Shown here in pieces: positions 10,602 to 26,193 of a stretch of 37,728 bases of DNA; the stretch's first letter is position 1, and every line of letters starts with the position of its first letter. The DNA is from an uncultured Dehalococcoidaceae bacterium (GTDB taxonomy: Bacteria; Chloroflexota; Dehalococcoidia; Dehalococcoidales; RBG-16-60-22). A model generated the notes under the pieces. It searched no databases, was not told the DNA's origin, and was given only the letters and a program-made list of their open reading frames with translations. Position numbers and translations under genes: made by a program. The stretch covers positions 1 to 37,728 of the forward strand of contig CAYWRT010000002.1 in assembly GCA_964460815.1 (NCBI GenBank), in the 5' to 3' direction.

Positions 10602-12458
10602 TTACTCAATGTAAAGCTCCTCCACCTTTTCTGGCAGCGGTACTCCTTTTTCGTCCCATCCCATCAACCTGTAGTAGTAGCTCTTAGCCTTCTCCATATC
10701 CGCCCGGTCAAACGGTGGCTTTGCGGCCAGAACGCCATCGGTCTTGGGCTGGAAAAAGCGCTCCGGGAGCACATCATCAGCCGCGGAAAACCCTTCCTTG
10801 ATATTGAATAATCTGGCTACAGTCAGGACCCTCTCGGCTACCCTTATCAGCTCAACGGCGCCCGTTTCCCACCCGGTAACCGCTTTTATCAGCTCAGCCT
10901 GCCTGTCCAGACTGTATTCTAGGAACAGACATACCGCCGAGCAGTCATCAAAAATCTTCTTGAGCTGTGCCAGCCTGAGGATGGCTACCTTACGCGGGCT
11001 AATTTCATTAGAAGGCAAAGTCTCGGTAATTCCCAGGTGGTGCAGCTCTTTAATCAGTGGCCAGGCCATGAACCTCAGGTCAAACAGGTTGGGGCAGTGG
11101 TCGGCGCCATTGGGATTGACCATGTAACCGAGACCCAGGCCGGCAGACACCCTCGGGTCGTGCATGCCGTTTTCCAGACCTTTGACGTGCATGGCAAAGT
11201 CCGCTGAGCCCCTGCCTATTTTCTCGGCCATGCGGGCGGTTCCCTCCGCCAGCAGGTCGCCGATACCCTCACGTCTGGCAATCAAATCAATAACTTTAAG
11301 CAGGGCTTCGTCATTGCCGAATCTGAGGTCGATGCCGCCGGTGTCTCCGGTGGTCAGAAGCCCTTTCTCAAAGCACTCCATAGCGAAAGCAACGGTACTG
11401 CCGGCTGAGATGGTATCCAGTGAATAGGCACCGCACCGCTCGTTGGCCTTAACGACGGCTTTAACGTTACCCACCCCGCAATCGGACCCCAGTGCCGCGA
11501 TGGATTCGTATTCCGGGCCACCATAAACGGCATCCACTCGGTAGGGTTCCTCAAATTGAACCATTTTCTTGCAGCGCACCGGGCAGGCATAGCAGCCCTC
11601 CATGCCGACCGTGATAGTGTCTTTCATCACTCCGCTGTGTATCTGCTCCACTTCCGGGAACAGGCCGTCGCGGAAGTTGCGTACCGGCAGGTTCCCTTCA
11701 GTTACCAGGTCTATCATATCGGGGCCGCCCGTGCCCAGTTCCGAAAGCCAGTGCCCCTTTGTTTCGCCCAGTACCTGCTGCCTTATTGCCTTCACACGCT
11801 CGCTATCAATAACTCTGGGCAGATTGTGCCCTCTGACGGCGATGGCCTTGAGGTTTTTCGAACCCATTACCGCCCCAACCCCCCCACGGGCGGCGGCGTC
11901 ATGGAGGCCGTGCATAATGCAGGCATAACGTACCTTATTCTCTCCCCCGGGTCCGATTAGGGCTGTTTGTACACGGTCGTCGCTTAGCTCGGTTCTAATG
12001 GCTTCCTGTGTTTCCTTGGTCTCCTTCCCCCAGAGGTGGGCAGCATCCCTGATACTCGCTTCCCCGTCCTGAATCCACAGGTAGACCGGTTTCTCAGCCC
12101 TGCCCTCGACGATAATGGCGTCATAACCGGCACGTTTGAGCTCGGCTGACCAGAAACCGCCGGACTCGGCTTTAGCGATAGTACCGGTCAGGGGAGACTT
12201 GGCGCCCACGCAGTGACGGGCGGCCCCCGGCAGCTGCAGCCCTGATAACGGTCCCAGAGCGAAGACGAGCTTATTATCGGGTGATAAAGCATCAATCCCC
12301 GGCTTCAGCTCCTTCCACAGGTAATAGGTAATGAATCCGGCTCCGCCGATATAGCGCCGGCAGACAATTTCATCAATGGTCTCTGCCTTGGCAGTTTTGC
12401 CGGAGAGGTTGACTCTCAGGATTTTACCGTTATAACCACCGGGTAACTCTCTGGACAT
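10602..12458 (-). CDS. aor: Aldehyde:ferredoxin oxidoreductase family enzyme (AOR-2, canonical motifs)
   Basis: 618 aa. GKILRVNLSGK...GGAGFITYYL. SPLTGTIAKAESGG. ARGGVGAVMGSKNLKAIAVRG. FeS motif CYACPVRC. Catalytic-Glu motif GGPEYES. GADHCPN. C-terminus YYRLMGWDEKGVPLPEKVEELYIE. Confidence 0.9.
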   Translation of the reverse strand: MSRELPGGYNGKILRVNLSGKTAKAETIDEIVCRRYIGGAGFITYYLWKELKPGIDALSPDNKLVFALGPLSGLQLPGAARHCVGAKSPLTGTIAKAESGGFWSAELKRAGYDAIIVEGRAEKPVYLWIQDGEASIRDAAHLWGKETKETQEAIRTELSDDRVQTALIGPGGENKVRYACIMHGLHDAAARGGVGAVMGSKNLKAIAVRGHNLPRVIDSERVKAIRQQVLGETKGHWLSELGTGGPDMIDLVTEGNLPVRNFRDGLFPEVEQIHSGVMKDTITVGMEGCYACPVRCKKMVQFEEPYRVDAVYGGPEYESIAALGSDCGVGNVKAVVKANERCGAYSLDTISAGSTVAFAMECFEKGLLTTGDTGGIDLRFGNDEALLKVIDLIARREGIGDLLAEGTARMAEKIGRGSADFAMHVKGLENGMHDPRVSAGLGLGYMVNPNGADHCPNLFDLRFMAWPLIKELHHLGITETLPSNEISPRKVAILRLAQLKKIFDDCSAVCLFLEYSLDRQAELIKAVTGWETGAVELIRVAERVLTVARLFNIKEGFSAADDVLPERFFQPKTDGVLAAKPPFDRADMEKAKSYYYRLMGWDEKGVPLPEKVEELYIE

Positions 12459-12547
12459 GGCTCTACCTTACCTCCCTTATAGTGTTCGGGTAGTTCAATA
12501 ATATAGCACCTTCATACCTCTTCTGTTGCCGCCCCTGTTTATTAAGG

Positions 12548-12958
12548 CTATTTGTATATGTGCGCTTTTTCGTATTTGGACGCAAGGGTAGCGTGAATCA
12601 GCAGCATGGGTTTATCAACTCTCTTAAATTCCAGGGGACAGTGAATCATCCCTTTCGGCATGTAGACGCTCGTGGGCTTGGTGATAACGTATTTTTCCTT
12701 TTCTTCTCCCAGGTACAGCTCGACTTCACCTCCCAGGTCCTCAAGACCATTAGGGTTTAGTCCCATCAGGGTGATATACATGTCGAATTCATGTGAATGC
12801 GGGTATTCCTCCATAAGCACGGGTTTGGTAACGGGCAGGCAGATGAGCGAAAAATTAGAGTCAAAGACTTTTTCACCGGCGTAATCTATACTTGGGCCAA
12901 AGGCTCCATGGTTGATGGGATGTTCGTACACATATTTCCCGTATTTTTTCTCAGCCAT
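12548..12958 (-). CDS. Small cupin-fold metalloprotein (about 136 aa)
   Basis: The track ORF starts at 12988. I prefer the ATG at 12958 (MAEKKYGKY...), which has GGAGG about 8 nt upstream and lies downstream of the predicted promoter. Cupin motif 1 is PHSHEFDMYITLMG and motif 2 is VYMPKGMIHCP. Confidence 0.65.
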   Translation of the reverse strand: MAEKKYGKYVYEHPINHGAFGPSIDYAGEKVFDSNFSLICLPVTKPVLMEEYPHSHEFDMYITLMGLNPNGLEDLGGEVELYLGEEKEKYVITKPTSVYMPKGMIHCPLEFKRVDKPMLLIHATLASKYEKAHIYK

Positions 12959-12996
12959 TTTTCTATCCTCCTTCTTACCAGACAGCATTTAGATAT

Positions 12997-13025
12997 ACAA
13001 TAGGCTAATTCCTCTCGTAAGTCAA
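12997..13025 (-). promoter_or_regulatory. Candidate promoter for the cupin-AOR-2-PrpD module
   Basis: On the minus strand: TTGACT (13025-13020), 17 nt, then TATTGT (13002-12997). Confidence 0.35.
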
Positions 13026-13178
13026 TTTAAAGTGATTGTTTTGTTTGCATTTGGTTGTTAGCTTTGCCTCACCTCCAGCCCCTCACATTGATATCTTTTC
13101 CCACCCACCGCCCTCGCAGCATCTAAGACTTATCCCGTAAGTATATACCCCCCACCCCCCAGTGGGGAGCAACCAGCG

Positions 13179-13408: not shown

Positions 13409-14446
13409 TTATTGGTTAGATGCTCGGTTATACAGGCTTCTGATGACCTGCTCGGCTTCGGCGACAGTCCGCTCTATAAGTTCGCGGCAGGTAGGAATAT
13501 CCTCAATTAAACCGACTACCTGTCCGGCCGGAGCGAAGGCTTTGGTAATATCGCCAGTTTCGAGCGCCTTGCGGAACATTGCCTGTCCAATGGCAAATTG
13601 AGGGAGTGAACCACGCATTTGCCTGACGTATTTGGCATTCTCCATTATCTCTTTCCAGCTGGCATTAAACTCCCTTTTGGTGGCTAGTATGCTGGGTATA
13701 ACGTCCCAGGGGTGTGTCCACCAGCCACGGTAGCGCCGCATCTTGCTGATAGCTCTCATGGGCATGCCGTCCCAGACAGCACTGAGGAGAGCGTCGGTAT
13801 CTCTGGCTTCAATATATTTTGATTTCAGGTCTTCAGGCATCGGGCTTTCCTGTGTAATAGCGAACCTTGTGCCCATGGCAATGCCCTCGGCACCCAGGGC
13901 TAAAGCGGCCGCCAGACCTTTGCCGTCACAGAAGCCGCCAGCCACGACTACAGGAATCCTGACAGCCCTGGCTACTTCGGGAATCAAAACTGAAGACGCT
14001 ATCAGGCTGGAATGCCCCCCGGATTCCCAGCTCTGTACTATTACGGCATCGGCACCATGCCTCTCGACACTCAATGCCTGCCTGACGCTGCCCACCGCCG
14101 GTATGAAAAGTACATTATCAGGTTTCTTGATATTGAAAAAAGTGAGGGGATTCCTGAAGCCAGAAGTCCACACCGGCACCTCTTCCTCAATCAGCACCTG
14201 GATAAGTTCCCTGACTTTGGGCATAATAGGCATGATATTAACGCCAAAGGGCTTACCATTGGTACGCTCTTTTATCTCGCGGATTTGCTGCCGTACCTGC
14301 TCCGGGGTTAATCCCGGGGGGGCGAAAAGTCCCAGTCCTCCGGCGTTACCGGTGGCTATAACCAGAGGCGCACGAGCCACCGATGCCATCGGCGACAGGA
14401 TGATAGGGTGTTGAATTTTAAACAATTCGGTTATTCTTGTTTTCAT
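13409..14446 (-). CDS. Nitronate monooxygenase / FabK-like FMN oxidoreductase (NMO family)
   Basis: 345 aa. IQHPIILSPMASV...GNAGGLGLFA. ESGGH. VVAGGFCDGKGLAAALALGAEGIAMGTRF. Confidence 0.85.
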   Translation of the reverse strand: MKTRITELFKIQHPIILSPMASVARAPLVIATGNAGGLGLFAPPGLTPEQVRQQIREIKERTNGKPFGVNIMPIMPKVRELIQVLIEEEVPVWTSGFRNPLTFFNIKKPDNVLFIPAVGSVRQALSVERHGADAVIVQSWESGGHSSLIASSVLIPEVARAVRIPVVVAGGFCDGKGLAAALALGAEGIAMGTRFAITQESPMPEDLKSKYIEARDTDALLSAVWDGMPMRAISKMRRYRGWWTHPWDVIPSILATKREFNASWKEIMENAKYVRQMRGSLPQFAIGQAMFRKALETGDITKAFAPAGQVVGLIEDIPTCRELIERTVAEAEQVIRSLYNRASNQ

Positions 14447-14475
14447 AAAGACCCTTTTTAAAGCAATTATACTTC

Positions 14476-15933
14476 TTATTTTTTGCCGGCTGAGGCATAT
14501 CTGGCGGCATTTTCGCCGGCAATGCGCCCCGAGTTGATGGCAAAGCCGAACGTACTTCCCGAAAGATTGATATTATAGGTATCCGGTACCCAGCCCCCGG
14601 TATCATTGCCGCCGGAAAAAAGCCCGGGGATAGGGTTATCTTCTTTATCAATTACCTCCATGCGCTCGTTTATCTTGAGGCCGCCCACCGTGGTCAGCAT
14701 ACCGGGGGTGCTTCTCAGGGCATAATAGGGTGGAGTAAGCAGGGGCTTGAGGTATACGCGGTCTTTGCCGAAGATGGGGTCATAACCATGCTCACAAATT
14801 TCATTGTACTCTTCCACGGTAGCCTTTAACACCCTGGGGTCAGCTCCCATCCATCGGGCAATCTCATCCCAGGAATCGGCTATCTTTACCGTTCCTAACC
14901 CGGCTTCCATTTCCAGTTCTTTCAGCCATTGGCTCGATTTGACCTTGCGTGCCCGGTATAGTGAGCCCATACCACGGGTAAATCCGTGGTCGACCAGAAA
15001 CTGCTTTATTCCAGAGTCCAGAAGAACAAAGGCCAGCAGCTCCGGCTGCCGCATCTGGGCGTTTACGGCCTCGAAGGATTTTATGCCGGTGCCTTCGTCC
15101 GTGAACCGCTGCCCCTTCTTGTTTACCCAGACCGTGAGAGGCTCCATGGCCATGCCGGATAAGACGCGGGAGCTGGGAAAGCCCGGCCCGGTCAGGTGTA
15201 GTATCCCCAGTCCATCGGTATCAGCGCCTATTTCCGTGGCCATTACTATGCCGTCTCCCGTATGAGGTAACCCAATGAGGTATATATTATCTCCGTATAA
15301 TTGGCCGTATTTCTTTAATAATTCCTTGTTTCCGGCAAAGCCGCCGGTGGCGATAATAACACTTTTCGCCGTAACTCCAAGCTGTTTCCTTTTATATTCA
15401 GCCAGGACTCCGCTTGTATTTCCCTTCTCATCGAGCCGGATTTTCATGGCTCGGGCCGGAGAGACTAGCTGGACGCCGAGCGCTTTACAGCGCCTGACCA
15501 GCACGTTGATAATTGCCCGGCCCCCTGCCTTGGGGCAGTGCCAGGTAATCATGGTCTGCCCGGGATAGTAGGGGGGCAGGTCATAGATTATCAGACCCAT
15601 GTCCTCCAGCCATTTCACGGTATCCCCCGATTTGTTTAAAAAGGCGCGAATGATTCTGGGATTAATCTTGTTATGGGAGTAGCTCATGGCCTCTTTGAAA
15701 CATATGTCCGTACTTACCTGTATTCTCCTCTGCCTCTGGAGGTGACTGCCCGCCGCAAAAATACCTCCGGCCAGCGCCGAGTTGCCACCAAAAGAACGGC
15801 GCTTTTCCAGTACGGTAACCTTGGCTCCCATTTCGGCGGCGGCCGCGGCCGCCGCCAGACCCGCCCCGCCTCCACCAACGATGGCAACTTCGGTTTCCAG
15901 GTTTTCCGTATTCAAATTATTGCTGGGACTCAT
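14476..15933 (-). CDS. FAD-dependent oxidoreductase, FAD_binding_2 type (KstD/TcuA/soluble fumarate-reductase-like), copy 1
   Basis: 485 aa with no signal peptide. Dinucleotide fold VAIVGGGGAGLAAAAAAAEMGAKVTVLEKR. C-terminal IPGLFSGGNDTGGWVPDTYNINLSGSTFGFAINSGRIAGENAA. Clear paralog of 34374..35831. Confidence 0.8.
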   Translation of the reverse strand: MSPSNNLNTENLETEVAIVGGGGAGLAAAAAAAEMGAKVTVLEKRRSFGGNSALAGGIFAAGSHLQRQRRIQVSTDICFKEAMSYSHNKINPRIIRAFLNKSGDTVKWLEDMGLIIYDLPPYYPGQTMITWHCPKAGGRAIINVLVRRCKALGVQLVSPARAMKIRLDEKGNTSGVLAEYKRKQLGVTAKSVIIATGGFAGNKELLKKYGQLYGDNIYLIGLPHTGDGIVMATEIGADTDGLGILHLTGPGFPSSRVLSGMAMEPLTVWVNKKGQRFTDEGTGIKSFEAVNAQMRQPELLAFVLLDSGIKQFLVDHGFTRGMGSLYRARKVKSSQWLKELEMEAGLGTVKIADSWDEIARWMGADPRVLKATVEEYNEICEHGYDPIFGKDRVYLKPLLTPPYYALRSTPGMLTTVGGLKINERMEVIDKEDNPIPGLFSGGNDTGGWVPDTYNINLSGSTFGFAINSGRIAGENAARYASAGKK

Positions 15934-15948
15934 GATATCTAACCTCCC

Positions 15949-17352
15949 TCAGTTCACCTTCAGGGGAACCAACAGCTCGACTATTTTGTGTACGCTATCG
16001 AGTTCCTCCAGATTTTCCAGTAAATCCAGCGCTTTTTGGGCATTACCTCTGGTCACCGTCCGGGAAAACTCTACATTGGCTCTGAATTTATCTGCTATCT
16101 CGTCTCGGGACATCGGATTTCTGACCGGGTCTCCCTTGGGGGCATCGTTGAATTCGGAGAACTCCCGTCCGTCTTTCATTCTTACCTTCAGTTTTGCGCT
16201 TTGTGCTGGCGCTCCAGGCAGTTCAACTGACTTTATTTTTTGAATAAGGGCGTTAATTTGAGGGTCACGAATAGACTCCTCAGAGAAGTGCCCAGGCTTA
16301 ACACTCCCTCTAAGCAGGGCGCAGGCGGCGGCATACTGGTAGCTGAAAATGGCACAGGTATGGGGGAAGTCCCCGATTTTGAAGGGTTGTTCCAGAAAAC
16401 CGCCTACACCACCCGGGGGTATGTAAATGGTTACTTCGGCTATGTCCTCAGCCTTAATATCATGTTTTTGCAAAAGCGACAGGGCGCTATCAATAACCAC
16501 ATGAGTGCCGCGGCAACAGGGATATGGCTTGAAGACAGCATCGGCGTAATACTTCTTACCCAGGTCCCTGGTTAAAATCTCGGGTTTAATACAACCCTCG
16601 GTATAAAGATGATAGTAGCCGAAGTCACTGAGCAGGGCATCATCCGGTCCTGTCCATCCCGCTTTGGCAAGTTGGGCGGAAAAGATACCATTCCGGGCTG
16701 ATGTGCCCTGAGCCAGCTTGAATGAAGTAGTTCCATCCCAGATGCTCTGGGAAGTACCGGCGAGCTGATTGAGAACGATGCCAAAGGCGTTTCTCATTTG
16801 CCGTTGGTTTAGGGCTAATAATCGGCCAGCGATAGCGGTTGCGCCGAGCATATTTGTCGTACCGATGCAGTCCCAACCCAGGGCAGGTGCGAAGCCAGAA
16901 GCGGCCAGCACCCGTGAGGCGACATCATCCCCCACCAATAAAGCCGTGATTAGTTCTTTGCCATTTACGCCTTTCATTTCCCCCATTGATATCGCTGTCG
17001 GTACTGTTGTCCCGCTGGTGTGGGCCGGGATAATCTCATCTTCAACCAGGGGACATAGTGCTTCGAAGTCGTAAGACCGTGCTATGATACTGTTTACCAT
17101 GGCAGCGTTGTGAACTGGCACCTCACCGCCATGAACCAGGATGGTGGCTTCTTCCCTGCCTCCCCACTCTCTGACCAGGTTTATTAATGCCGGATTGCCG
17201 CCGGCGTTGGCACCGCCTATCAAACACCCCACCACATCGATGATTCGGCTCTTGGCGTTGTCTATTGTCGCCTGGTCGAAGTTTTCAAAGCGCGTCTCCC
17301 GCACATTTGCCGAAAGTGCTTCGATTGGTGAGTTTTTAGCTGTGCTGCTCAC
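15949..17352 (-). CDS. MmgE/PrpD-family protein, copy 2
   Basis: 467 aa. Same architecture as 9169..10581 but divergent in sequence (FDQATIDNAKSRIIDVVGCLIGG...; PYPCCRGTH versus PYPCCRMLH). Confidence 0.8.
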   Translation of the reverse strand: MSSTAKNSPIEALSANVRETRFENFDQATIDNAKSRIIDVVGCLIGGANAGGNPALINLVREWGGREEATILVHGGEVPVHNAAMVNSIIARSYDFEALCPLVEDEIIPAHTSGTTVPTAISMGEMKGVNGKELITALLVGDDVASRVLAASGFAPALGWDCIGTTNMLGATAIAGRLLALNQRQMRNAFGIVLNQLAGTSQSIWDGTTSFKLAQGTSARNGIFSAQLAKAGWTGPDDALLSDFGYYHLYTEGCIKPEILTRDLGKKYYADAVFKPYPCCRGTHVVIDSALSLLQKHDIKAEDIAEVTIYIPPGGVGGFLEQPFKIGDFPHTCAIFSYQYAAACALLRGSVKPGHFSEESIRDPQINALIQKIKSVELPGAPAQSAKLKVRMKDGREFSEFNDAPKGDPVRNPMSRDEIADKFRANVEFSRTVTRGNAQKALDLLENLEELDSVHKIVELLVPLKVN

Positions 17353-17395
17353 CGCCGGATGCCTCCTCTTTTTGTCATTGTAGATTGAGCAGGAA

Positions 17396-18616
17396 TCAGA
17401 TAATCACTTCGGCATTTACCAGCTCGACAAATTCTTCATCACTCATACCCAGGATTTCAGTGCATACGTAGTGATTATGCGCGCCAATGAGGGGGCCGGT
17501 CCTTATCCAGGGTGGTGTCTTTGACAGGACAAAAGGCCATCGCGTATGCAGGTAATCACCAATGACGGGGTGATGCATTTGGAGCAGTAGCTCTCTGGCT
17601 TTTACATGAGGGTCGGAGTCGACGACATCTTGAGCATTTTGCACAATCCCGGCCGGGACTCCGGCTGCCTGCATCATCTTCATCACTTCCCGGGGTATAT
17701 GCTGCGCCGTCCATTGGTTTATCTGCACTTCTAACTCGTCCTCATTTGCCTTCCGAGCCGACAGAGTGGCGAATTTGGGGGACTTTGTCCATTCAGGATT
17801 ACCCAGTACCCCGCAGAAACTTACCCATTCCTCATCGGTAAATACGGCAATAACGCACCACCGGTCATCCCCCTTACAGCGAAAGGCATTATGCGGCGCA
17901 GCGTGATTATCCCGGCTGCCCACCGGGGTTTGTATTTTGCCATTTATGGTAAAATCTAAAATGGCCGGACCCAGAAAATGCACCAGGGGCTCCAGCTGGC
18001 TGACATCGAGGTGTTGTCCCTTCCCTGTCCGGCGCTTATAGTCCAGAGCGGCAATACCGGCCATAGCGGCAAACATGGGCCCGATAACATCGGGGACGGC
18101 GGTAAAGCCGGGTGATGATGGACCGCTATCGGGAAATCGATAGTAGTAAAACTGGCCGCTCTGCGCCATGGAGTTGCTACCCCAGCCGCCCACCCCCACC
18201 ATCGGGCCTTCCTGCCCCATAATACTGACTTCTATGAGAATGATATCTTCTTTTACCTTTTTTAGCTCCTCGTAGCCAAATGACATGGCTTTCATCAGGC
18301 CTGGCCTCTGGTTCTGGAGTACTATGTCCGCCCAGCCGACCAGCTTCATAAATATCTCCCGGCCACGGGGCTCTCTCAGATTCAGCGTGAAGCTCTTTTT
18401 ACTGCTGTTAAAGGTATTAAACGTAATGGAACGGTCATAACCGGGGATGTCGTCCTTATACGGCGAGCTGGTCCTGGCCATCTCGGGATACCTGGTGGAC
18501 TCAATCTTGATTACCTCAGCGCCGAAGTCGGCAAAATAGGCTCCGGTCCAGGGGCCGTTAATAGCCTGTGTCCACTCCACGACCTTCACTCCTTGAAACG
18601 GCAGTCTTCTGTCCAT
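17396..18616 (-). CDS. Family-III (CaiB/BaiF) CoA-transferase, subunit retaining the catalytic Asp
   Basis: 406 aa. GVKVVEWTQAINGPWTGAYFADFGAEVIKIE. AVPD(176)VIGPMFAAMAGIAAL aligns with the GDSNSG nucleophile region of formyl-CoA transferase, as I recall that sequence. Confidence 0.85.
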   Translation of the reverse strand: MDRRLPFQGVKVVEWTQAINGPWTGAYFADFGAEVIKIESTRYPEMARTSSPYKDDIPGYDRSITFNTFNSSKKSFTLNLREPRGREIFMKLVGWADIVLQNQRPGLMKAMSFGYEELKKVKEDIILIEVSIMGQEGPMVGVGGWGSNSMAQSGQFYYYRFPDSGPSSPGFTAVPDVIGPMFAAMAGIAALDYKRRTGKGQHLDVSQLEPLVHFLGPAILDFTINGKIQTPVGSRDNHAAPHNAFRCKGDDRWCVIAVFTDEEWVSFCGVLGNPEWTKSPKFATLSARKANEDELEVQINQWTAQHIPREVMKMMQAAGVPAGIVQNAQDVVDSDPHVKARELLLQMHHPVIGDYLHTRWPFVLSKTPPWIRTGPLIGAHNHYVCTEILGMSDEEFVELVNAEVII

Positions 18617-18621
18617 ATAGA

Positions 18622-19851
18622 CTAGATAACCCCCTTTTTTTTCAAGTCAGCCAGGGTGCTTTGACTCAGACCCAGTTCACCTATATATATTTCCCGGTTG
18701 TGCTCGCCGATAAGCGGGGCTCTGTGCCGGGGCTCTGTTTTCGTTTCGTTAGATAGAAACAGGTGCCCGGCATAAGGTATAACATCCGATAGCTCGGGGT
18801 GTTCGATTGCTTTCCAGTATTTTCTGAACTCAAGCTGCTTATTTTCGTACAGGTCTCTCACGTCGTTCACCGCACTGATGCGCAGTCCCCTCTTTAAAGA
18901 CTCGTCTTCTATCTCTTTTTTAGTATGCCGTTGCAGGAGCTTAAAAACCGGCCCCTCTATCCGGTCAATTTTTTCCTGAGTTATGCCATCGAAACCGAAC
19001 TCATCCCAGTCGATGTCTTTCAGGTCTCCAAGCAGGCCTTCTTCCTCCAACCATTTAGCTAACTGCTTATTTTCGCTGGCACCGATGGTCCCGCCGAAAA
19101 GAGTCCAGGTCACGTGCCCGTCTTTGCAGGGCCATATCGTTCTGGTATTCACATTATAACGAAACATGATGTCGCCGTGCCGGCCCGCGTTGTAGTGCCT
19201 GAATTCCCAGGATGTTGGCACTTCACTGTAATTTTCCCGGATGGCACACTCGGATAGTGAAACGTCAATATGCTGTCCCTCTCCCGACCGGGTGCGGTAG
19301 TAATAGGCAATCATGGTAGCCAGGGCGGCATTGGTGCCCGCCAGGCAATAGGCATGGTTTGGGCTCAGCCGGCAGGGCACGCCACCGGGTTCGCCGGTCA
19401 GCGACATGATGCCACCCACAGCCATAGCTATGAGGTCCGTAGCTTTATAATTTTTATAGGGTCCGGTCTGGCCAAAAGGGGTTATTGAGGTCATTATGAG
19501 CCCGGGATAAATGGCACTTAGTTCCTGGTAGCCTAAGCCCAGATTGTCCAGATAACCCACCGGAAAAGACTCGAGCAGGAAATCGGCGTTTTTAACCAAT
19601 TTTTTAAAAATATCCTGGCCTTCCCGGGTCTCTATATTCAGGGTTATGCCCCTTTTACTTTCATTGAAAGCGAACCAGTAGAGGCTTTTCTCCGGGTCGG
19701 GCACATCATGATAGAATGGCCCGAAATTTCTGGCCGGGTCTCCCCCGGGCCTTTCGATTTTGATTACGTCAACGCCGAACTGAGCCAGGAGTTTGCCACA
19801 GAAGAAACCAAGCTCATTGGTCACATCCAGAGCACGAAGACCACTCAGCAT
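18622..19851 (-). CDS. Family-III (CaiB/BaiF) CoA-transferase paralog lacking the catalytic Asp
   Basis: 409 aa. LRALDVTNELGFFCGKLLAQFGVDVIKIERPGGDP. In an ungapped eye alignment the nucleophile position holds Tyr168 (NHAYCLAGTNAALATMIA). Its stop is only 5 nt upstream of the start of the downstream transferase gene. Confidence 0.85.
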   Translation of the reverse strand: MLSGLRALDVTNELGFFCGKLLAQFGVDVIKIERPGGDPARNFGPFYHDVPDPEKSLYWFAFNESKRGITLNIETREGQDIFKKLVKNADFLLESFPVGYLDNLGLGYQELSAIYPGLIMTSITPFGQTGPYKNYKATDLIAMAVGGIMSLTGEPGGVPCRLSPNHAYCLAGTNAALATMIAYYYRTRSGEGQHIDVSLSECAIRENYSEVPTSWEFRHYNAGRHGDIMFRYNVNTRTIWPCKDGHVTWTLFGGTIGASENKQLAKWLEEEGLLGDLKDIDWDEFGFDGITQEKIDRIEGPVFKLLQRHTKKEIEDESLKRGLRISAVNDVRDLYENKQLEFRKYWKAIEHPELSDVIPYAGHLFLSNETKTEPRHRAPLIGEHNREIYIGELGLSQSTLADLKKKGVI

Positions 19852-19903
19852 ACCGATTCCGTACCTTGGTTATTTATTATCGCCTTACGACTTCTTTCTG
19901 TCA

Positions 19904-21835
19904 CTACCCTGCCTTATTGATGAAGCTGGTAAGTTCCAGTTCCGTAAGTGTCCTTTTCGTAGGGATGCCGTTTTTATCCCACCCTCTCTCCTTGTAGTAA
20001 TCATCGAGTAGCATCTCAATATCTTCTTTAGCCAATCTCCTGGTATTATAGTAGTCTTTCAGCCAGGTCTCCTCGCCCAAGAGGGAAAATGGCTCGGTGT
20101 AGTATCGTTCCGGTAAGTAATCATCCTGCCTGGTGGCACCCTGCCTGATGTTGAATAGCTTGAGCAGGTTGACACATCGTTCGGAGGCTGATAGCAATTC
20201 GGCTGGTTGAATATGAACGCCGGTGACCAGGTGATAGAGCTCCGTAATCGTGGCCAGGCTGTATAACCGGGCCAGAGGTGGTCGGCTGCAAATACCCATA
20301 ACATCAAGCAGGACGTTCCAGCGTTCCACATACCGTGTCAGCCGGGCGATATTAAACCCCAGCGGGTCGCTGAAAACCCGGTCAAGCTCGTCTTCTGACA
20401 TACCTATCCTGGTGCAGTATCTTCGCAGCTGCTCCGGTGTACGCCCCGCAATCACCGTGGGACCGAGGGCCAGGGTGGCGTGCGGTCCCGTGAGCCCAAC
20501 TACAGTGCCAAAACCTTCCGTCCCGAAAAGGCCACGGGGGTCGAAATCCAGTGAGCCGCCTCGCCTCTGCACAGCATACTTCGTCAGTTCTTCGCCGAGG
20601 GCGGCAAACACGCCGGGGTAACCGTCGGCTACAGCGTTGCCAAAGCCTTCCCGGTTAGCTACCTTGTGCATCCAGGTTAGTACCGTGTCCAGGTTCCGCT
20701 CCAGTTTCATGCCGTCGGTTACCTTTTCATCAATTATCCCTTGTTCTTGCAGGTCCATAAGGAAATCTAACACACAGGTAATCTCATTGGAATCTATGCC
20801 GAGCCTGTTGGCGGTGTCGTGACACTTGACAATTTGATTGTAACTTAAGAGGTCAAACTTGGAACCATAGGAGAGAATAGCGCCCATATTACATGCCTGC
20901 GGGGTTTCCAGGCCGGCGAACTCACCGTCCTTCAGCTTGTACACGACCTTGCAGCTCAGCGGGCAGAGTGTACAGGGAAGAGCGATATCTCTTACTTTCA
21001 TGAACGCTTCCACGCCGAACCGATTGACCCATCTATCGGCGGGGTAGGATTCGCGCCAGTTTTTCCAGGCGGCTTTGCCTTCCTGACCGTACTGCTCTAC
21101 GGCTATCGTGGTGCCCAGGTTCATCCATTGTTTGAGGTTCGGGTCATGCAGGAACCTGTCATATAGTTCATCAGTTTTGGCCAGGAGTTCTCTGGTATGG
21201 GCTACGCGCAACCCTTTGGTGCCCCTGACTACAATAGCTTTAATATTCTTGGAACCGGGGACCGCCCCGGAGCCTTTTCTACCCGCGGATGCCTGCTTAT
21301 TGGTATAAGCCATGGATATCTTGGCTAATTTTTCACCAGCCGGGCCAATGCCGAATATAGTGCAGTTGTCGCCATATCGGTCCCAGAGTTCGTCAGCAGC
21401 CTCATAGGTGTCCTTGCCCCAGAGGTCGCCGGCGTCGTTAATCTGTACCTCATCATCGAAAATAGTGATATATACCGGCTTGGCGGCTTTTCCGGTTATG
21501 ACCATAGAATCATAGCCCGCCCATTTCAGATGCGTCCCGAAATCACCGGATGTCGCTGTCTGGGCCAGTCCGTTGAGTGGTGACTTTGATGTCCAGTCGG
21601 TCTTGTTGGTCCCGATGAGACCTGTCCCGGAGAGAGGGGTCGAGCTGGCTATCAGGGCATTTCCCGGTGACAGCGCATCCGTATCCGGCTTTACGGCGTC
21701 ATAGAGTAACTTGGCGCTCATGCTTATGCCGCCAATAAACTTCCTGGCCATTCCAAGGTCAAAATTCTCCTTGACAATGCTTCCTTGAGTTAAATCGATT
21801 TTCAGAATCTGACCGGCGTATCCCAGCATTTCCAT
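19904..21835 (-). CDS. AOR-family tungsto/molybdopterin enzyme, non-canonical (AOR-3)
   Basis: The track ORF starts at the GTG at 21868 (654 aa). I prefer the ATG at 21835 (MEMLGYAGQILKIDLTQGS), which has GAGGGGG 8 nt upstream and a typical AOR N-terminus. FeS motif CTLCPLSC. GSGAVPGSKNIKAIVVRG. C-terminus YYKERGWDKNGIPTKRTLTELEL. Where AOR-1 and AOR-2 have PEYE(T/S), this protein has TPQAC(326)NMG. Confidence 0.85.
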   Translation of the reverse strand: MEMLGYAGQILKIDLTQGSIVKENFDLGMARKFIGGISMSAKLLYDAVKPDTDALSPGNALIASSTPLSGTGLIGTNKTDWTSKSPLNGLAQTATSGDFGTHLKWAGYDSMVITGKAAKPVYITIFDDEVQINDAGDLWGKDTYEAADELWDRYGDNCTIFGIGPAGEKLAKISMAYTNKQASAGRKGSGAVPGSKNIKAIVVRGTKGLRVAHTRELLAKTDELYDRFLHDPNLKQWMNLGTTIAVEQYGQEGKAAWKNWRESYPADRWVNRFGVEAFMKVRDIALPCTLCPLSCKVVYKLKDGEFAGLETPQACNMGAILSYGSKFDLLSYNQIVKCHDTANRLGIDSNEITCVLDFLMDLQEQGIIDEKVTDGMKLERNLDTVLTWMHKVANREGFGNAVADGYPGVFAALGEELTKYAVQRRGGSLDFDPRGLFGTEGFGTVVGLTGPHATLALGPTVIAGRTPEQLRRYCTRIGMSEDELDRVFSDPLGFNIARLTRYVERWNVLLDVMGICSRPPLARLYSLATITELYHLVTGVHIQPAELLSASERCVNLLKLFNIRQGATRQDDYLPERYYTEPFSLLGEETWLKDYYNTRRLAKEDIEMLLDDYYKERGWDKNGIPTKRTLTELELTSFINKAG

Positions 21836-21886
21836 TTCAGGTACCCCCTCGACGTTCTGATAAGCCACATGAATATCTTATCGTTA

Positions 21887-23548
21887 CTATAGCTCCTTAT
21901 CTGCCCGGGTTAAGGCACCGTAGTTGCATACGGCTATACAGAGACCGCAATTCTTGCATTCATCGCTGAACTGTAAATCGGTCGTTCTTATAGCGTGGTC
22001 TCTGGTCAGTGTAATACACGACTTAAAGGGGTTGAACTCCCCCAGATTTATGGCAGAACAGCGTACCTGACATGTCCGGCACCCGGAACATTTATCAACC
22101 TCAATCCTGATGGGCAGGTCACACCGCAGGCACCGCCTGGCTTCTTCAACGGCACTCGGCTCATCAAGGTTAAGTTCTACCTCGCTGAAGTCACGGAGTC
22201 GCTCGCTGACAGGTCGTGCGGGTATGTTAACCCGGTTGACGATGGGAAGCCCCAGCCTGTATGAGGCCACTTTCTGGGGCGTCGCCAGTACCTCTTCAAT
22301 CGACCCCTGGCCACCAAGGTAGCGGTCTATTGAGGCGGCGGCCTGTCTCCCGGCAGCGATAGCCTCGATAATTGAAGCCGGGCCGCTGACGACATCGCCG
22401 CCGGCAAAAACCCCGTCTCTGCCGGTCGCCAGGGTGCCCGCGGTGACCTGAACCGTACCACCGTCACCGGTCGTCAGCCCGAGCTGGTCAGGGATATCAG
22501 GCGTTTGACCGGTAGCCGAAATGACACTGTCAACCTCAACAGTGAACTCGCTGCCGGGGACCGGTTCCGGGCGTCTCCGCCCGCTGGCATCCACTGCCCC
22601 CAGTCTGGACCGGATAAATTCTACCTTCAACTTGCCGTTGGCTCTGGCTATCCTGGTGGGCGCCGTCAGGAACTGAATATTCACTCCCTCGGCCATAGCC
22701 TCGGCCACCTCGGACAGGTTGGCCGGCATCTCGTCCCAGGAGCGGCGGTAATAAATCGTCACATTCCTGCCACCGAGCCGAAGGGCGGTCCGGGCGGTAT
22801 CGATGGCGGCATTGCCCCCACCGACAACCGCCACCTTGTCCCCCGGACTGACCTGCCGGCCCATGTTAACATCTTTAAGGAAGGATACGCAGTCCACTAC
22901 CGCCGGGTCATCTTCTCCCTCGATACCCATCTTCTGCCCCCTGTGGGCACCAATAGCTATGAAAACAGCGTCGTAGCCCTGCTCAAAGAGCCAGTCCGGT
23001 GATTCAACCCTGGTGTTCGTTTTAATGTTCACCCCTGCCTTTCTGACAATATCTATCTCCGAATCGAGCACGTTCCTGGGCAGCCGGTACCTGGGAATAC
23101 AGGTCAGCATCATGCCACCCGGCTCCGGGAGCGCCTCGAAGACGGTGACAGCGTGCCCAAGCCTGGCCAGGTAATAGGCTGCGGTTAGTCCGGCCGGCCC
23201 GGAACCGACGACAGCCACCGACTTGCCCGTTGCTCGGGCAGCTGCCGGCTCTCTGGTGCTGATTGACCTCCCTTCAGCCACAAAGCGTTTGAGAGCTTTT
23301 ATGGCCAGCGGCCCGCCCATCTCGCTTCGCTGGCAGCTGGCCTCGCAGGGGTGGAAGCAGACATAGCCACAGATTAAGGCAAAGGGAATCCTCTCCCTGA
23401 TTACTGCCAGAGCTTCGTCGAACTTGCCTTCAGCAATCAGACGAATGTAGCGGGGTACATCCACGCCCGCGGGACAAGCACGCTGACACGGTGCTTCTTC
23501 TAGCGGCTCTTTGTAGGTAATCACAGTAAAACCCCCTTCTGGTTTCAT
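21887..23548 (-). CDS. GltD/SudA-like NAD(P)H-dependent FAD/FeS oxidoreductase fused to a C-terminal 2x[4Fe-4S] ferredoxin domain
   Basis: 553 aa. N-terminal Cys clusters CQRACPAGVDVPRY...CGYVCFHPCEASC. FAD fold VAVVGSGPAGLTAAYYLARLGH. NAD(P)H fold VAVVGGGNAAIDTARTAL. C-terminal CSGCRTCQVRC and CKNCGLCIAVC. Confidence 0.85.
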   Translation of the reverse strand: MKPEGGFTVITYKEPLEEAPCQRACPAGVDVPRYIRLIAEGKFDEALAVIRERIPFALICGYVCFHPCEASCQRSEMGGPLAIKALKRFVAEGRSISTREPAAARATGKSVAVVGSGPAGLTAAYYLARLGHAVTVFEALPEPGGMMLTCIPRYRLPRNVLDSEIDIVRKAGVNIKTNTRVESPDWLFEQGYDAVFIAIGAHRGQKMGIEGEDDPAVVDCVSFLKDVNMGRQVSPGDKVAVVGGGNAAIDTARTALRLGGRNVTIYYRRSWDEMPANLSEVAEAMAEGVNIQFLTAPTRIARANGKLKVEFIRSRLGAVDASGRRRPEPVPGSEFTVEVDSVISATGQTPDIPDQLGLTTGDGGTVQVTAGTLATGRDGVFAGGDVVSGPASIIEAIAAGRQAAASIDRYLGGQGSIEEVLATPQKVASYRLGLPIVNRVNIPARPVSERLRDFSEVELNLDEPSAVEEARRCLRCDLPIRIEVDKCSGCRTCQVRCSAINLGEFNPFKSCITLTRDHAIRTTDLQFSDECKNCGLCIAVCNYGALTRADKEL

Positions 23549-23688
23549 AGCACATTGACCATCTGGCGCTCAGGCGGAGAGAAACGACAAGGGCAGTATT
23601 TCTTGCTACGTAAAAGAAAGGCTTTTATGTAGTTTGACTTCAGCTACCCAACAATACACTTTCTACAGGTATCTTCCTTCAATCTTGC

Positions 23689-24729
23689 CTACAGCTCAAA
23701 AACATACTCGCAATAAGGTTGACCCGCGCTCCTTAGACTGGGTACCGAGAATTTTAGTTCAGGGTTAATTATCTCACAAGCCTTGTGCTCGTGCCCCATA
23801 GAACCCAGGCAGATTTCGGCCGTTAGTTCCTCCTGAGGACTGGCCGATAGCGGGCAAAATCCACTATTTCTCATGACCACCCGGTTAGGGGTATCCTCAA
23901 TTATTTCGAGGTCATTCTCGAAAACTATTTGGTGGAAAATTTTATAGTAGCCGCCGGCTGTCCGGGCATCGTTACCCGGGATGTTGTAGTTCTGCAATGA
24001 CATGATTACATAGTTATCGGCGGCTTCGCTGGTTACCTTGTAGACCGCCTCCATGCCCTCCTTGCCGTACCTTCGGTAAAGGGCCTTTGACATTGAACCA
24101 TAATTTTCCCAGCCCCTTCGCTGACGGGCTTTTTCCCGTCTCTCTTTTGGCCACACTTCCTCATCCAGTTTGTATAGAGATACCGGTACGGATACCTCAG
24201 AAAGAGGCGCTGTCTCGGGTAGCTCAAACATCATGGTGCAAGATTCGTCTCCAGCACTCATCAGTGATATATTGGTAAATTGTATATTAGGGTTAATTAT
24301 TTCGCAGGCTACGAGCTCGTGTCCCTGACCACCTTCGCACATCTCCGCGCAGAGTTCCACCTGAGGGAAGCGCGCCAGAGGACAACCACTGGAACCTCTC
24401 AGTATCACTCTCCTCGGCGTGTCCTCAACAATCTCAAAATCAGTGTCAAAAACTATCTTGTCAACGAGCTTGAAATAGGCGGCCACCGTTCTACAGTCAT
24501 TGCCCACGATATGGAAGTTTTTCAATGCCCGGGGTACGTATTTTCTGGCCATCTCCATCATCTGGTCGTTATTGCACTGCGTACCTTCAAAGCCGTACTT
24601 TTTGTATATCTCCTTGGCTAGTTTTGCGTAGTATTCTTCCGCCATGTGTGTTGAAGCATCCCGACGGCGCTTTTCCGTCCACTTCTTTTCGTCATAGCTG
24701 ACCTCTGATACTGGTATTGAATCCGCCAT
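23689..24729 (-). CDS. Internally duplicated Cys/His-motif protein; each half resembles the L-2-amino-thiazoline-4-carboxylate-hydrolase-like (ATC_hydrolase) domain (family assignment tentative)
   Basis: 346 aa. Residues 1-170 and 171-346 align along their whole length. Both halves keep C-P-L-x11-(C/T)-x3-C-x5-H-x4-CEIINP-x16-G-x3-C-x3-FEL. Confidence 0.6.
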   Translation of the reverse strand: MADSIPVSEVSYDEKKWTEKRRRDASTHMAEEYYAKLAKEIYKKYGFEGTQCNNDQMMEMARKYVPRALKNFHIVGNDCRTVAAYFKLVDKIVFDTDFEIVEDTPRRVILRGSSGCPLARFPQVELCAEMCEGGQGHELVACEIINPNIQFTNISLMSAGDESCTMMFELPETAPLSEVSVPVSLYKLDEEVWPKERREKARQRRGWENYGSMSKALYRRYGKEGMEAVYKVTSEAADNYVIMSLQNYNIPGNDARTAGGYYKIFHQIVFENDLEIIEDTPNRVVMRNSGFCPLSASPQEELTAEICLGSMGHEHKACEIINPELKFSVPSLRSAGQPYCEYVFEL

Positions 24730-24782
24730 CTTTACCTCCGTAATGTTTACAATTTTAAAAAATAGTTATCCTCACCTTATCG

Positions 24783-25934
24783 TCATTTATAGGGGAGAGC
24801 CTCTTTCCCCAAAATTTCCCTGACAATGTTCAGCTTGTTTATTTCAGCGGTGCCATCAGTAAACTCATAGCCGATGACATCTCGCAGCCGCTGCTCTAAA
24901 GGTAAGTCCTCGGTGTAGCCAACGTGCCCGTACAGGAGTATGCAATCATGAATTATTCGTGCGGCTAGCTGCGGACACCACCATTTGCACATAGCCCCTT
25001 CTTTGAAAGTTGACATATCCTGGTCTCCACGCCACAGAGTATAGTAGCAGAGCCATCTGGCGGCCTCGAGATACGTGGCGGCCTCGGCAATCTTGAAGGA
25101 TACGCCCTCATATTTGGCAATCGGCTTGCCAAAAACTACCCTCTCCTTTGAGTAAGTGATAATTTCATCCAGAGAGGCCTGGGCCGATGCCAGCACCGCC
25201 AGTCCGGTCAGGGCGCGGCCTTTGTCAACGCCGGCTATAAAGGCTCTGGCAAATGCCTGCCCTTCTTCCCCGATACGATTCTTGGCGGGAACCATGACGC
25301 CATCGAAGTTAATAAGGGCTCTACCCACGGGTTTGCAGCCCATGTCAATAATCGGCGACATTTCAATACCCGGAAGGTCCATGGGGATAAGGAACTGGGT
25401 CAGGCCTCTGATTCCGGCGTCGGGGTCAGTTTTGGCCAGCAGAAGGCAGGCATCACCGTAGGCGCCCCGGCTGACCGAGGTCTTTTCCCCATTAATCCTG
25501 TAATAATCTCCCTCCCTGATGGCCCTTGTTTTCGTAGCTGCGACATCGGAGCCGCAATCCGGCTCACTTATGGCGGCGCTGCAAATTTTTTCGGTGCTGA
25601 CAAAGCCGGGAACCCACTCAGCCGCCACCTCTTCTTCTCCCTGCGCCGCCATCCAGGCCATGTTCTGGACATGATGTGTCAGTCCTCCCAGATTGACATC
25701 TGCATAGCTCATCTCCTCAATAACAACGCCGCGGCTTATCCAGGTTGCCTCCTGTCCGCCATACTTTTCCGGTACTCCCATTCCCGTATAACCCATATCG
25801 GCTATCTTCTTCCAGATTTCGCGGGGTACCGTGGTCTCCTTGGCCCGTTTCATCGCTCCTGGCGCTAGCTCTTTTCTGGCAAAGGATCGCACCTGATTCC
25901 GTAACATCTTGTCGGCTTCACTGAAATCAAACAT
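24783..25934 (-). CDS. Acyl-CoA dehydrogenase family flavoprotein (Asp at the usual catalytic-Glu position)
   Basis: 383 aa. Typical ACAD N-terminus (FDFSEADKMLRNQVRSFARKELAP) and SEPDCGSD. The C-terminal RDVIGYEFTD(360)GTAEINKLNIVREIL aligns ungapped to MCAD [24 protein letters not shown], as I recall that sequence. Confidence 0.88.
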   Translation of the reverse strand: MFDFSEADKMLRNQVRSFARKELAPGAMKRAKETTVPREIWKKIADMGYTGMGVPEKYGGQEATWISRGVVIEEMSYADVNLGGLTHHVQNMAWMAAQGEEEVAAEWVPGFVSTEKICSAAISEPDCGSDVAATKTRAIREGDYYRINGEKTSVSRGAYGDACLLLAKTDPDAGIRGLTQFLIPMDLPGIEMSPIIDMGCKPVGRALINFDGVMVPAKNRIGEEGQAFARAFIAGVDKGRALTGLAVLASAQASLDEIITYSKERVVFGKPIAKYEGVSFKIAEAATYLEAARWLCYYTLWRGDQDMSTFKEGAMCKWWCPQLAARIIHDCILLYGHVGYTEDLPLEQRLRDVIGYEFTDGTAEINKLNIVREILGKEALPYK

Positions 25935-26053
25935 ACTGACTCGCTTCCCTCTCCTTTCTCTTCACTTATCCAATAGGATATTATCAGCGCATATTCCGCC
26001 CCCCTTTTTAAATTTATAACTGCTGGCTCTTTATCTATTATCCCGTATTATGT

Positions 26054-26100
26054 TTGGTATTACCAATACAATATAAATATATTTCCATGGCATTTGTCAA
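26054..26100 (-). promoter_or_regulatory. Candidate promoter plus palindromic operator upstream of the acyl-CoA dehydrogenase gene
   Basis: On the minus strand: TTGACA (26100-26095), 18 nt, then TTATAT (26076-26071). The perfect inverted repeat TTGGTA-n-TACCAA (26054-26066) lies immediately downstream, overlapping the expected transcription start. Confidence 0.4.
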
Positions 26101-26193
26101 TTTTGGCCTATCTACAAGCCGTACGCTGACAGCTTACGACTTTCGCCTTATTGGTAACCTTTAAATGCGAATTCCGGTAACTGCCTCAGTCCG

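Follow-up and report, generated by a model that had tools for sequence, protein, structure and literature searches.

The window analyzed here, the whole stretch of 37,728 nucleotides (nt) at positions 1 to 37,728 of contig CAYWRT010000002.1 (assembly GCA_964460815.1, an uncultured Dehalococcoidaceae bacterium), carries on its minus strand seven closely spaced genes, among them that of AOR-3, a non-canonical subunit of the AOR/WOR family of tungstopterin (or molybdopterin) oxidoreductases. In coordinate order, the seven open reading frames (ORFs) encode an NMO/FabK-like FMN enzyme (13409–14446), a fumarate-reductase-type FAD enzyme of the FAD_binding_2 family (14476–15933), the MmgE/PrpD-family protein PrpD1 (15949–17352), two family III CoA-transferases (17396–18616 and 18622–19851), AOR-3 itself (19904–21868), and an NfnB/StnC/GltD-type NAD(P)H module with FAD and two [4Fe-4S] clusters that is fused at its C terminus to a further 2x[4Fe-4S] ferredoxin (21887–23548). 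The gaps between them are 29, 15, 43, 5, 52, and 18 nt. An earlier note on this DNA had described seven minus-strand genes spaced by 5–52 nt and had assigned each to a family; the ORF coordinates agree exactly, and all seven assignments are backed by Pfam and NCBIfam (Fer4_20, Pyr_redox_2, and a C-terminal dicluster ferredoxin in the fusion; AFOR_N and AFOR_C in AOR-3; CoA_transf_3 in both transferases; MmgE_PrpD N and C, FAD_binding_2, and NMO in the remaining three). None of the seven proteins reaches an NCBIfam equivalog cut-off. Because homologues and Protein Data Bank (PDB) alignments of AOR-3 begin at Met14 of its ORF, the probable start of the protein lies at 21829. Just upstream on the same strand are the genes for a 346-amino-acid (aa) tandem V4R-like protein (23689–24729; AlphaFold2 [AF2] model and Foldseek) and an acyl-CoA dehydrogenase (24783–25934; Pfam and NCBIfam).

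The AOR-3 clade consists of about 47 close protein clusters with 51–90% identity, beyond which identity falls sharply to at most 43%. We compared the window with 16 further loci, giving 17 that carry an AOR-3-clade gene (53–90% identity; labelled L001, L003, and so on), by searching them with the window proteins using tblastn. L095 and L097 keep the complete seven-gene order, L093 has six of these genes and a small ferredoxin where the GltD fusion would be, and the core gene set is found in a dozen more contigs. The earlier view of the genes as a conserved, co-oriented block is thus borne out. A gene for a ferredoxin or a GltD–ferredoxin lies directly upstream of AOR-3 in all 15 readable loci: six encode the fusion (the window, L086, L087, L094, L095, and L097) and nine a stand-alone ferredoxin of 87–122 aa, so that the fusion that had been proposed as the partner of AOR-3 is real in part of the clade and is replaced by a small ferredoxin in the larger part. 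Directly downstream of AOR-3 there is a BbsE-like transferase in 12 of the 17 loci (in L003 it lies two genes further), an orthologous acyl-CoA dehydrogenase adjoins AOR-3 in eight loci besides the window (66–95% identity), and the 346-aa protein is present in five loci, the window included. The complete PrpD–FAD–NMO tail is found in the window, L093, L095, and L097, and the L096 contig ends inside PrpD. Among the loci compared, orthologues of PrpD1 are confined to L093, L095, L096, and L097 and those of the NMO enzyme to L093, L095, and L097; the FAD_binding_2 enzyme has orthologues in L088, L091, L093, L095, and L097. The recurrent core is therefore the acyl-CoA dehydrogenase, in some loci the tandem V4R-like protein, the 2x[4Fe-4S] ferredoxin, AOR-3, and the two CoA-transferases, and the PrpD, FAD, and NMO enzymes are a lineage-specific tail. 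This redraws the functional unit of seven genes that had been proposed earlier, as its tail occurs only in the closest relatives and the dehydrogenase and the 346-aa protein, which it omitted, recur more widely.

Could the block be an accidental or degenerating juxtaposition with AOR-3 an inactive paralogue? With three AOR, two PrpD, and two FAD_binding_2 proteins encoded in the window, duplication is evidently rife, and a hydratase gene upstream of the block has an in-frame stop. However, contigs with AOR-3 proteins as much as 47% apart still share the gene order, the four [4Fe-4S] ligands of AOR-3 (C286, C289, C293, and C514) are invariant in 37 aligned clade members as well as in a broader alignment, 100 columns are invariant among the same 37 members, and the AF2 model is confident (predicted local distance difference test [pLDDT] 86, pTM 0.90). 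The earlier note had named a neighborhood that is not conserved in relatives as the mark of chance juxtaposition, and what we find is conserved order. A chance arrangement is so improbable that we regard it as effectively excluded.

The closest collinear relative, L093 (a 154-kb contig of assembly GCA_034430855.1), is 84–91% identical in DNA to the window at 11989–13031, 13411–21830, 23690–26995, and 30921–37728. Between the two, the flanking proteins are 92–95% identical, whereas AOR-3 is 72% and the 346-aa protein 77% identical and the type of ferredoxin differs. This covariation against the background of highly similar neighbors suggests that AOR-3, the ferredoxin, and the 346-aa protein form one working unit. 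The divergent stretch (19904–24729 in the window, L093:10001–13434) also suggests that the three genes were exchanged as a cassette by recombination.

Membership of AOR-3 in the AOR/WOR family is plain from Pfam (AFOR_N, E-value 3e-63; AFOR_C, 1e-65). A 2026 survey distinguishes 92 clades of tungsten oxidoreductases, and a physiological role is defined for only five of them (PMC13328260). AOR-3 scores 222–240 bits against aldehyde-oxidizing AORs and FOR, 178 against BamB, 147 against AorB, and 126 against WOR5, and its nearest solved relative thus stands at 240 bits, compared with 444 bits for AOR-2 of the window against the Pyrococcus furiosus AOR. In Foldseek comparisons the AOR-3 model has TM scores of 0.76–0.84 to all solved family members. 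Given the low scores to all of these proteins and the nearly equal TM scores, AOR-3 falls outside every structurally characterized clade, and the earlier description of it as atypical stands. An assignment to YdhV was rejected: AOR-3 scores 225 bits against a cut-off of 868, which is below the score of the canonical AOR-2. The window contains no metal transporter or cofactor genes.

The active site sets AOR-3 further apart. In aldehyde-oxidizing members, Thr243, Glu313, Tyr427, and His448 (P. furiosus AOR numbering) are conserved second-shell residues, as are Glu311 and Tyr312 (PMC13328260, PMC12096430). We examined these positions in an alignment of 207 sequences, for which reference fragments were rebuilt from printed HMMER alignments and checked against published residue numbers. 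In 46 of the 47 clade members, C-N-[MVIL]-G (C313-N314-M-G in AOR-3) stands where P-E-Y-E, the motif with Glu311, Tyr312, and Glu313, would be, and Tyr427 is replaced by Phe or Ile. AOR-3 therefore lacks the full second-shell set, with Thr243 and His448 kept and E-Y-E and Tyr427 lost. The E-Y-E residues are intact in AOR-1 and AOR-2 of the window and, among the matches listed, in most AORs of 80 unrelated genome loci.

These residues bear directly on the alternative that AOR-3, despite its changed active site, is still an oxidoreductase of aldehydes and acids. It would then convert a pathway aldehyde (for example a dicarboxylate semialdehyde) to an acid that the BbsEF-type transferase turns into an acyl-CoA ready for dehydrogenation and hydration, with electrons passing to the ferredoxin subunit or, in this lineage, through the GltD module to NAD(P)+. 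Benzoyl-CoA reductase is the sole non-aldehyde member of the family, and all other characterized members act on aldehydes or aldehyde-like substrates (PMC13328260). The top PDB matches of AOR-3 are aldehyde-oxidizing AORs, and its likeness to the enzymes of P. furiosus (1AOR) and Clostridium autoethanogenum (9G7J) and to the class III enzyme AorABC of Aromatoleum aromaticum (8C0Z) extends to TM scores of 0.80–0.84 and to the retained Thr243 and His448. In contrast, Glu313, the proposed catalytic base, is missing across the whole clade together with Glu311, Tyr312, and Tyr427, although all four are present in AOR, FOR, WOR5, AOR-1, and AOR-2, and a conserved Cys-Asn takes the place of lost residues. 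Furthermore, the window already has two canonical AORs, and the conserved core encodes no enzyme that would generate an aldehyde. We consider this the main alternative, if on the whole doubtful, and return to it with the electron-transfer module.

The Cys of the substituted motif invites comparison with BamB, since a protein Cys ligand to the metal has been confined to BamB and YdhV, of which YdhV-type members contain Mo (PMC12096430). C313 pairs with the tungsten-ligating Cys322 of BamB in the HMMER pairwise alignment and in hhalign of the clade profile ("GLPTYMMKC" versus "GLETPQ-AC"), in both cases in low-confidence columns; the C313 column is conserved in at least 90% of the clade, and in the AF2 model C313 lies immediately N-terminal to helix 314–322. 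In MAFFT, by contrast, the P. furiosus AOR residue opposite C313 is Pro310 or Glu311, two to three residues before Glu313, and a fragment search of the active-site loop against the PDB gave a BamB match that began only past the loop. The equivalence of C313 and Cys322 thus probably holds to within a few residues and falls short of proof.

BamB and BamC of Geobacter metallireducens (class II benzoyl-CoA reductase, 4Z3W) share traits with AOR-3 and its ferredoxin, namely the AOR fold with a [4Fe-4S] cluster, the loss of the aldehyde second-shell residues, an adjacent small Fe-S subunit, and an acyl-CoA gene context. AOR-3 and its dedicated ferredoxin-like small subunit could on these grounds form a minimal class II benzoyl-CoA reductase, that is, a dearomatizing aryl-CoA reductase of the BamB/BamC type, and the V4R/MopR-like protein with its aromatic-ligand-binding fold just upstream, as well as the class I BzdNO-like genes and a cyclohexanecarboxyl-CoA-dehydrogenase-like enzyme in the neighborhoods, would suit such a function. 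Yet the 178-bit score to BamB is below the scores to AORs, and the invariant BamB residues Glu251, His255, Glu257, and His260, which provide its Zn/proton conduit, are replaced in AOR-3 by Ala, Tyr, Gln, and Lys (HMMER) or by Ala, Gly, Glu, and Ala (MAFFT). Neither the window nor the related loci examined contain BamDEFGHI-type bifurcation genes (Hdr-like, NuoEFG-like), and the small subunit has two clusters rather than three. The AOR-3 lineage of the window uses an NfnB-type NADPH flavoprotein instead, and a linear chain fed by NADPH cannot attain about −620 mV. A BamBC-type dearomatizing reductase is for these reasons improbable. With E-Y-E and Tyr427 lost on one side and the BamB conduit residues and Bam partners missing on the other, AOR-3 is neither a canonical AOR nor an orthologue of BamB.

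Related deviations are seen outside the clade. In four proteins with 37–40% identity from sister clades of Dehalococcoidia and Freyarchaeota (P0054, P0058, P0060, and P0063), the third [4Fe-4S] Cys is replaced by Asp (CxxCxxxD) and E-Y-E is also missing, which points to a large and diverse set of non-canonical AOR-family proteins. Additionally, P0051, P0056, P0063, and L007 (36–42% identity) have a Cys in the same alignment column as C313 ("SCP", "ACP", "SCILS"), so that such a Cys may not be confined to BamB, YdhV, and the AOR-3 clade.

The GltD fusion matches 9bov_A (397 bits), StnC (8oh5_C, residues 102–624; 373 bits), and NfnB (4ylf_B, 290 bits); the match spans fusion residues 19–542 and includes Fer4_20 and the FAD/NAD(P) Rossmann domains. 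The ferredoxin part shares 50–70% identity with the stand-alone ferredoxins encoded ahead of AOR-3 orthologues. By sequence comparison, the protein is an NfnB/StnC-type NADPH module joined to the clade's own ferredoxin subunit, and the earlier assignment of the fusion as the electron module of the tungsten enzyme is upheld by this identity. It differs from NfnB, StnC, and GltD (4YLF, 8OH5, 9BOV) in that its C-terminal ferredoxin is AOR-3-specific and in that the window has no gene for an NfnA-type, GltB, or StnAB partner. We rejected a role as a glutamate synthase subunit, because a large subunit is missing and NfnB and StnC are matched best. The exchange between a plain ferredoxin and the NfnB–ferredoxin fusion within one clade is a natural comparison of how such an enzyme is wired to redox carriers.

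Class III WORs combine the large subunit WorL, a four-cluster WorS, and a separate FAD/NAD subunit, WorN, of the IPR023753 type (PMC13328260). The window's combination of a large subunit, an Fe-S part, and a FAD/NAD(P) module is similar to this, which favors the aldehyde alternative; the differences are that the Pyr_redox_2 flavoprotein here is of the GltD/NfnB type and is fused to a ferredoxin with two clusters rather than four, and the AorC chain of 8C0Z gives no match to the fusion at E ≤ 1e-5. GltD-like genes with 33–43% identity to the fusion also adjoin AORs of other clades (L008:1–1582, L038 near 8774, and L061 near 6264), from which we conclude that GltD-type NAD(P)H wiring is probably recurrent among AOR-family enzymes, and this too is in line with oxidation of an aldehyde. 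On thermodynamic grounds an aldehyde readily reduces NAD(P)+, and a linear NADPH chain suits aldehyde oxidation better than a very low-potential reduction.

The two CoA-transferases match the two subunits of the benzylsuccinate CoA-transferase BbsEF (PDB 9fn0) one to one and reciprocally in sequence comparisons. The 18622–19851 protein scores 205 bits against 9fn0_A and 97 against 9fn0_B, and the 17396–18616 protein scores 236 bits against 9fn0_B and 70 against 9fn0_A. The loop "VPD" of the latter, with D177, aligns with "YTD" of 9fn0_B, and the former has no Asp there; that the first transferase lacks the Asp nucleophile and the second retains it had been noted earlier, and the loop comparison agrees. 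Both proteins are far below the cut-offs of the NCBIfam mesaconate, glutarate, and formyl-CoA transferase equivalogs. These reciprocal matches appear to link the operon with the activation of dicarboxylates in the manner of BbsEF. Moreover, the acyl-CoA dehydrogenase, whose nearest named model is cyclohexanecarboxyl-CoA dehydrogenase (336 bits versus a 575-bit cut-off), lies just upstream together with an enoyl-CoA hydratase-family gene (26194–26973), so that part of the block resembles beta-oxidation of the bbs type. The likeness to the bbs operon of anaerobic toluene degradation (BbsEF, 9FN0) thus covers two adjacent family III genes, the dehydrogenase, and the hydratase-family gene, and in L003, L004, and L092 also DUF35 and thiolase genes; the differences are that a fumarate-adding glycyl radical enzyme is lacking and that neither a thiolase nor a BbsCD pair is encoded in the window. 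We know of no bbs operon that holds an AOR-family enzyme, although our search for one was not exhaustive. The earlier statement that no characterized pathway combines these families was too strong in view of the BbsEF-like transferases with a dehydrogenase and a hydratase. In our literature searches, no published account of this cluster was found.

The 346-aa protein is an internal duplication of two domains of about 170 aa, each with conserved Cys, His, and Glu. Its AF2 model has a pLDDT of 94.7, and Foldseek matches the domains to Bet3/TRAPPC3, H-NOX, and the phenol-sensor domains of MopR, PoxR, and DmpR (E = 7e-4 to 2e-2, TMt 0.5–0.7). On the basis of this model we predict a V4R-type small-ligand-binding fold and a ligand-binding partner of the enzyme. 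The family is narrow, with 24 clusters that are all at least 68% identical.

In more distant relatives, the core is surrounded by genes of acyl-CoA metabolism, some of which hint at aromatic or alicyclic substrates. The ferredoxin–AOR pair of L003, L004, and L092 lies amid enoyl-CoA hydratases, 3-hydroxyacyl-CoA dehydrogenases, and the DUF35 and thiolase pairs. Subunits of a BzdN/BzdO-like class I reductase or of double-cubane type adjoin the cluster at L087:768–5384, L090:2441–4926, and L004:12021–14590; the BzdN-like match in the L087/L090 neighborhood reaches 422 bits against a 454-bit cut-off, and in L087 two BcrAD-type ATPases and a ferredoxin accompany the BzdN/O-like genes. Together with the V4R/MopR-like fold and the cyclohexanecarboxyl-CoA-dehydrogenase-like enzyme, the BzdN/BzdO-like genes of L087 and L090 are what points to an aromatic or alicyclic substrate. 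At L003:16143–21470, in a relative with 71% identity, the cluster is adjoined by two PrpD genes and by the genes of a 798-aa glycyl radical enzyme (PFL2-3 subfamily, 586 bits) and its activase. A fumarate-addition (bss/ass) pathway in L003 was rejected, the glycyl radical enzyme being of the PFL2-3 dehydratase type.

We hypothesize that a substituted dicarboxylate imported by TRAP is activated with CoA and that the tungsten enzyme acts on the resulting thioester, a reading that we favor tentatively, at somewhat less than even probability. The imported dicarboxylic acid would most likely be a 2-substituted succinate or an aromatic or alicyclic dicarboxylate, and a heteromeric BbsEF-type transferase with one catalytic and one Asp-less subunit would form its CoA thioester, presumably with succinyl-CoA as the donor. 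The acyl-CoA dehydrogenase and the enoyl-CoA hydratase-family protein would process the thioester next. AOR-3 would then carry out one low-potential redox step on the thioester and not on a free aldehyde, at a metal that is probably Cys-ligated as in BamB. Electrons would enter or exit the metal by way of the [4Fe-4S] cluster of AOR-3 and the dedicated 2x[4Fe-4S] ferredoxin, which in this lineage is connected with NAD(P)H by the fused NfnB-type module. The tandem V4R-like protein would probably bind the hydrophobic substrate or serve as a third subunit, and the PrpD-family, FAD, and NMO/FabK enzymes would be lineage-specific additions for isomerization or decarboxylation and for C=C reduction. 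Gene order and its conservation, domains, residue patterns, and the homology of the partners are observed, whereas action on a thioester, the substrate class, the Cys–W bond, and the way in which electrons flow are inferred. The case for action on a thioester gains from the missing aldehyde-oxidation residues and from the BamB-like Cys.

Several observations weigh against action on a thioester. AOR-3 is closer to the aldehyde-oxidizing AORs than to BamB, its modeled fold does not separate BamB from the AORs, Thr243 and His448 are retained, MAFFT shifts C313 away from the BamB position, and the BamB conduit residues are not conserved. An adjacent CoA-transferase would be equally expected if AOR-3 made a free acid that is then activated. 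Because a linear chain from NAD(P)H to the tungsten cannot attain Birch-type potentials, the fusion fits NAD(P)+-reducing aldehyde oxidation at least equally well. No thiolase is encoded in the window, and hence full beta-oxidation of the bbs type is not encoded there. Finally, the dehydratase/lyase-type glycyl radical enzyme of L003 belongs to an aldehyde-producing class and is paired with a member of the clade, and the window contains genes for a short-chain dehydrogenase/reductase (SDR) and an aldo/keto reductase, both of which also suit an aldehyde substrate. The probability that is left beyond the four readings given here falls to readings that we did not consider.

Under the thioester hypothesis, a fuller proposal can be made, which we advance with less assurance than the hypothesis itself. 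Besides BamB and YdhV, the AOR/WOR family may have in AOR-3 a third Cys-bearing lineage, a W-bis-pyranopterin enzyme wired to ferredoxin or NADPH that reduces or dehydrogenates a substituted-succinyl-CoA or an aromatic or alicyclic acyl-CoA together with a V4R-type partner and a BbsEF-type transferase, in an undescribed route of anaerobic degradation in the abundant, uncultured Dehalococcoidia of marine sediment. AOR-3 would then join benzoyl-CoA reductase as the second type of tungsten enzyme known to act on something other than an aldehyde. If the residue loss, the Cys at the BamB position, and the linkage to CoA-ester genes all hold, as they appear to, the clade is a concrete candidate for new tungsten chemistry. 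The cluster is best filed as an uncharacterized AOR/WOR clade with a BamB-like Cys and BbsEF-type activation rather than as a categorically new system.

PrpD1 shares the two-domain fold of the MmgE/PrpD family, which includes cis-aconitate decarboxylase (CAD/IRG1), iminodisuccinate (IDS) epimerase, and 2-methylcitrate dehydratase. Its scores are 89–106 bits for Bacillus subtilis IRG1, IDS epimerase, and CAD, as opposed to 27 bits for PrpD, and it is therefore nearer to the IRG1/IDS-epimerase branch than to 2-methylcitrate dehydratase. The NCBIfam PrpD models give 21–33 bits against cut-offs of 458–575 (2-methylcitrate dehydratase, 33 versus 575). We take the active-site residues of CAD to be Asp93, Thr97, His103, His159, Lys207, and Lys272. 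Compared with mouse CAD, PrpD1 keeps Asp93, His103, and Lys272, whereas Thr97 is replaced by Leu, His159 by Asp, His277 by Cys, and Lys207 by Phe with a Lys one position later. Assignments as 2-methylcitrate dehydratase or CAD were rejected, as the scores are far below the cut-offs and CAD residues are missing. For the same reasons a tricarboxylate substrate, at which the earlier note had hinted from the PrpD family, is not indicated. The best named models for the FAD_binding_2 enzyme are the vinylphenol reductase VprA (303 bits versus a 600-bit cut-off), TcuA (188 versus 369), and flavocytochrome c, and the NMO enzyme scores 251 bits against the 453-bit cut-off of FabK.

The transcription unit probably begins upstream of the seven genes. 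On the operon strand, the closest likeness to a sigma-70 promoter (TTGACA-17-TATATT, 11 of 12 positions, a consensus match only) is at 30992–30964, and no convincing minus-strand terminator was found between the operon genes; the totals of promoter-like sites in the region are not above those of shuffled controls. A second promoter-like match on the plus strand (31052–31080) is divergent and lies ahead of the TRAP genes. The divergent flank comprises TRAP DctPQM (31238–34298, plus strand), a second FAD_binding_2 enzyme (34374–35831, plus strand), and an Fe-S flavoenzyme of the old yellow enzyme (OYE)/2,4-dienoyl-CoA-reductase type (35849–37711, minus strand) that is incomplete at the window end. 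The earlier note had invoked TRAP import; TRAP genes do flank the block, and this flank is conserved in L093 with 66–92% amino-acid identity. The minus-strand genes for hydantoinase/oxoprolinase A (28796–30850) and B (27065–28789), which were identified by Pfam and separate the promoter region from the hydratase gene, have no counterpart in the collinear L093 or in any other related locus, and 27065–30850 appears to be a recent lineage-specific insertion.

The hydratase gene (minus strand; Pfam) has a frame of 259 codons with one in-frame TGA at 26560–26562 ("INIGLI*GSIRS"), and the same TGA is present in the syntenic L093:7763–8536. Protein identity between the window and L093 is 89–91% on either side of it, and the next 32 nt, which do not differ between the two, contain some 20 nt past the TGA a hairpin, GCGC-GGUCU-GCGC, which we take to resemble the loop of the Escherichia coli fdhF selenocysteine insertion sequence (SECIS). 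The TGA region has no Rfam hit to a SECIS family, its RNA fold z-score (−0.16) is not significant, and no homologue that contains a Cys was found. The TGA may be a selenocysteine or read-through site or, alternatively, a shared nonsense mutation.

The bacteria that carry the operon are probably uncultured sediment Dehalococcoidia, and contig names of the relatives such as SMTZ1 suggest estuarine or marine sediment. An exact look-up of the AOR-3 sequence returned no record, and a scan of genome collections with the clade alignment gave, among the matches listed, relatives of 29–38% identity and no close clade member. The other two AORs of the window point to the same group, with AOR-1 77% identical to a gene of a Dehalococcoidaceae metagenome-assembled genome (MAG) and AOR-2 56–62% identical to genes of Dehalococcoidia MAGs, among the matches listed. 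The AOR, CaiB-type, and PrpD paralogues of these abundant uncultured organisms have so far been annotated generically, and the cluster offers a handle on their diet. Downstream of the operon on the minus strand are orf146 (12548–12988), the canonical AOR-2 (10602–12458), and the second PrpD-family gene (9169–10581). AOR-2 also follows the block in L093 (20572–21041) and L097 (9723–11474), and the pair of a canonical AOR-2 with a second PrpD-family gene 20 nt further on recurs in the window (9169–12458) and at L001:14100–17583.

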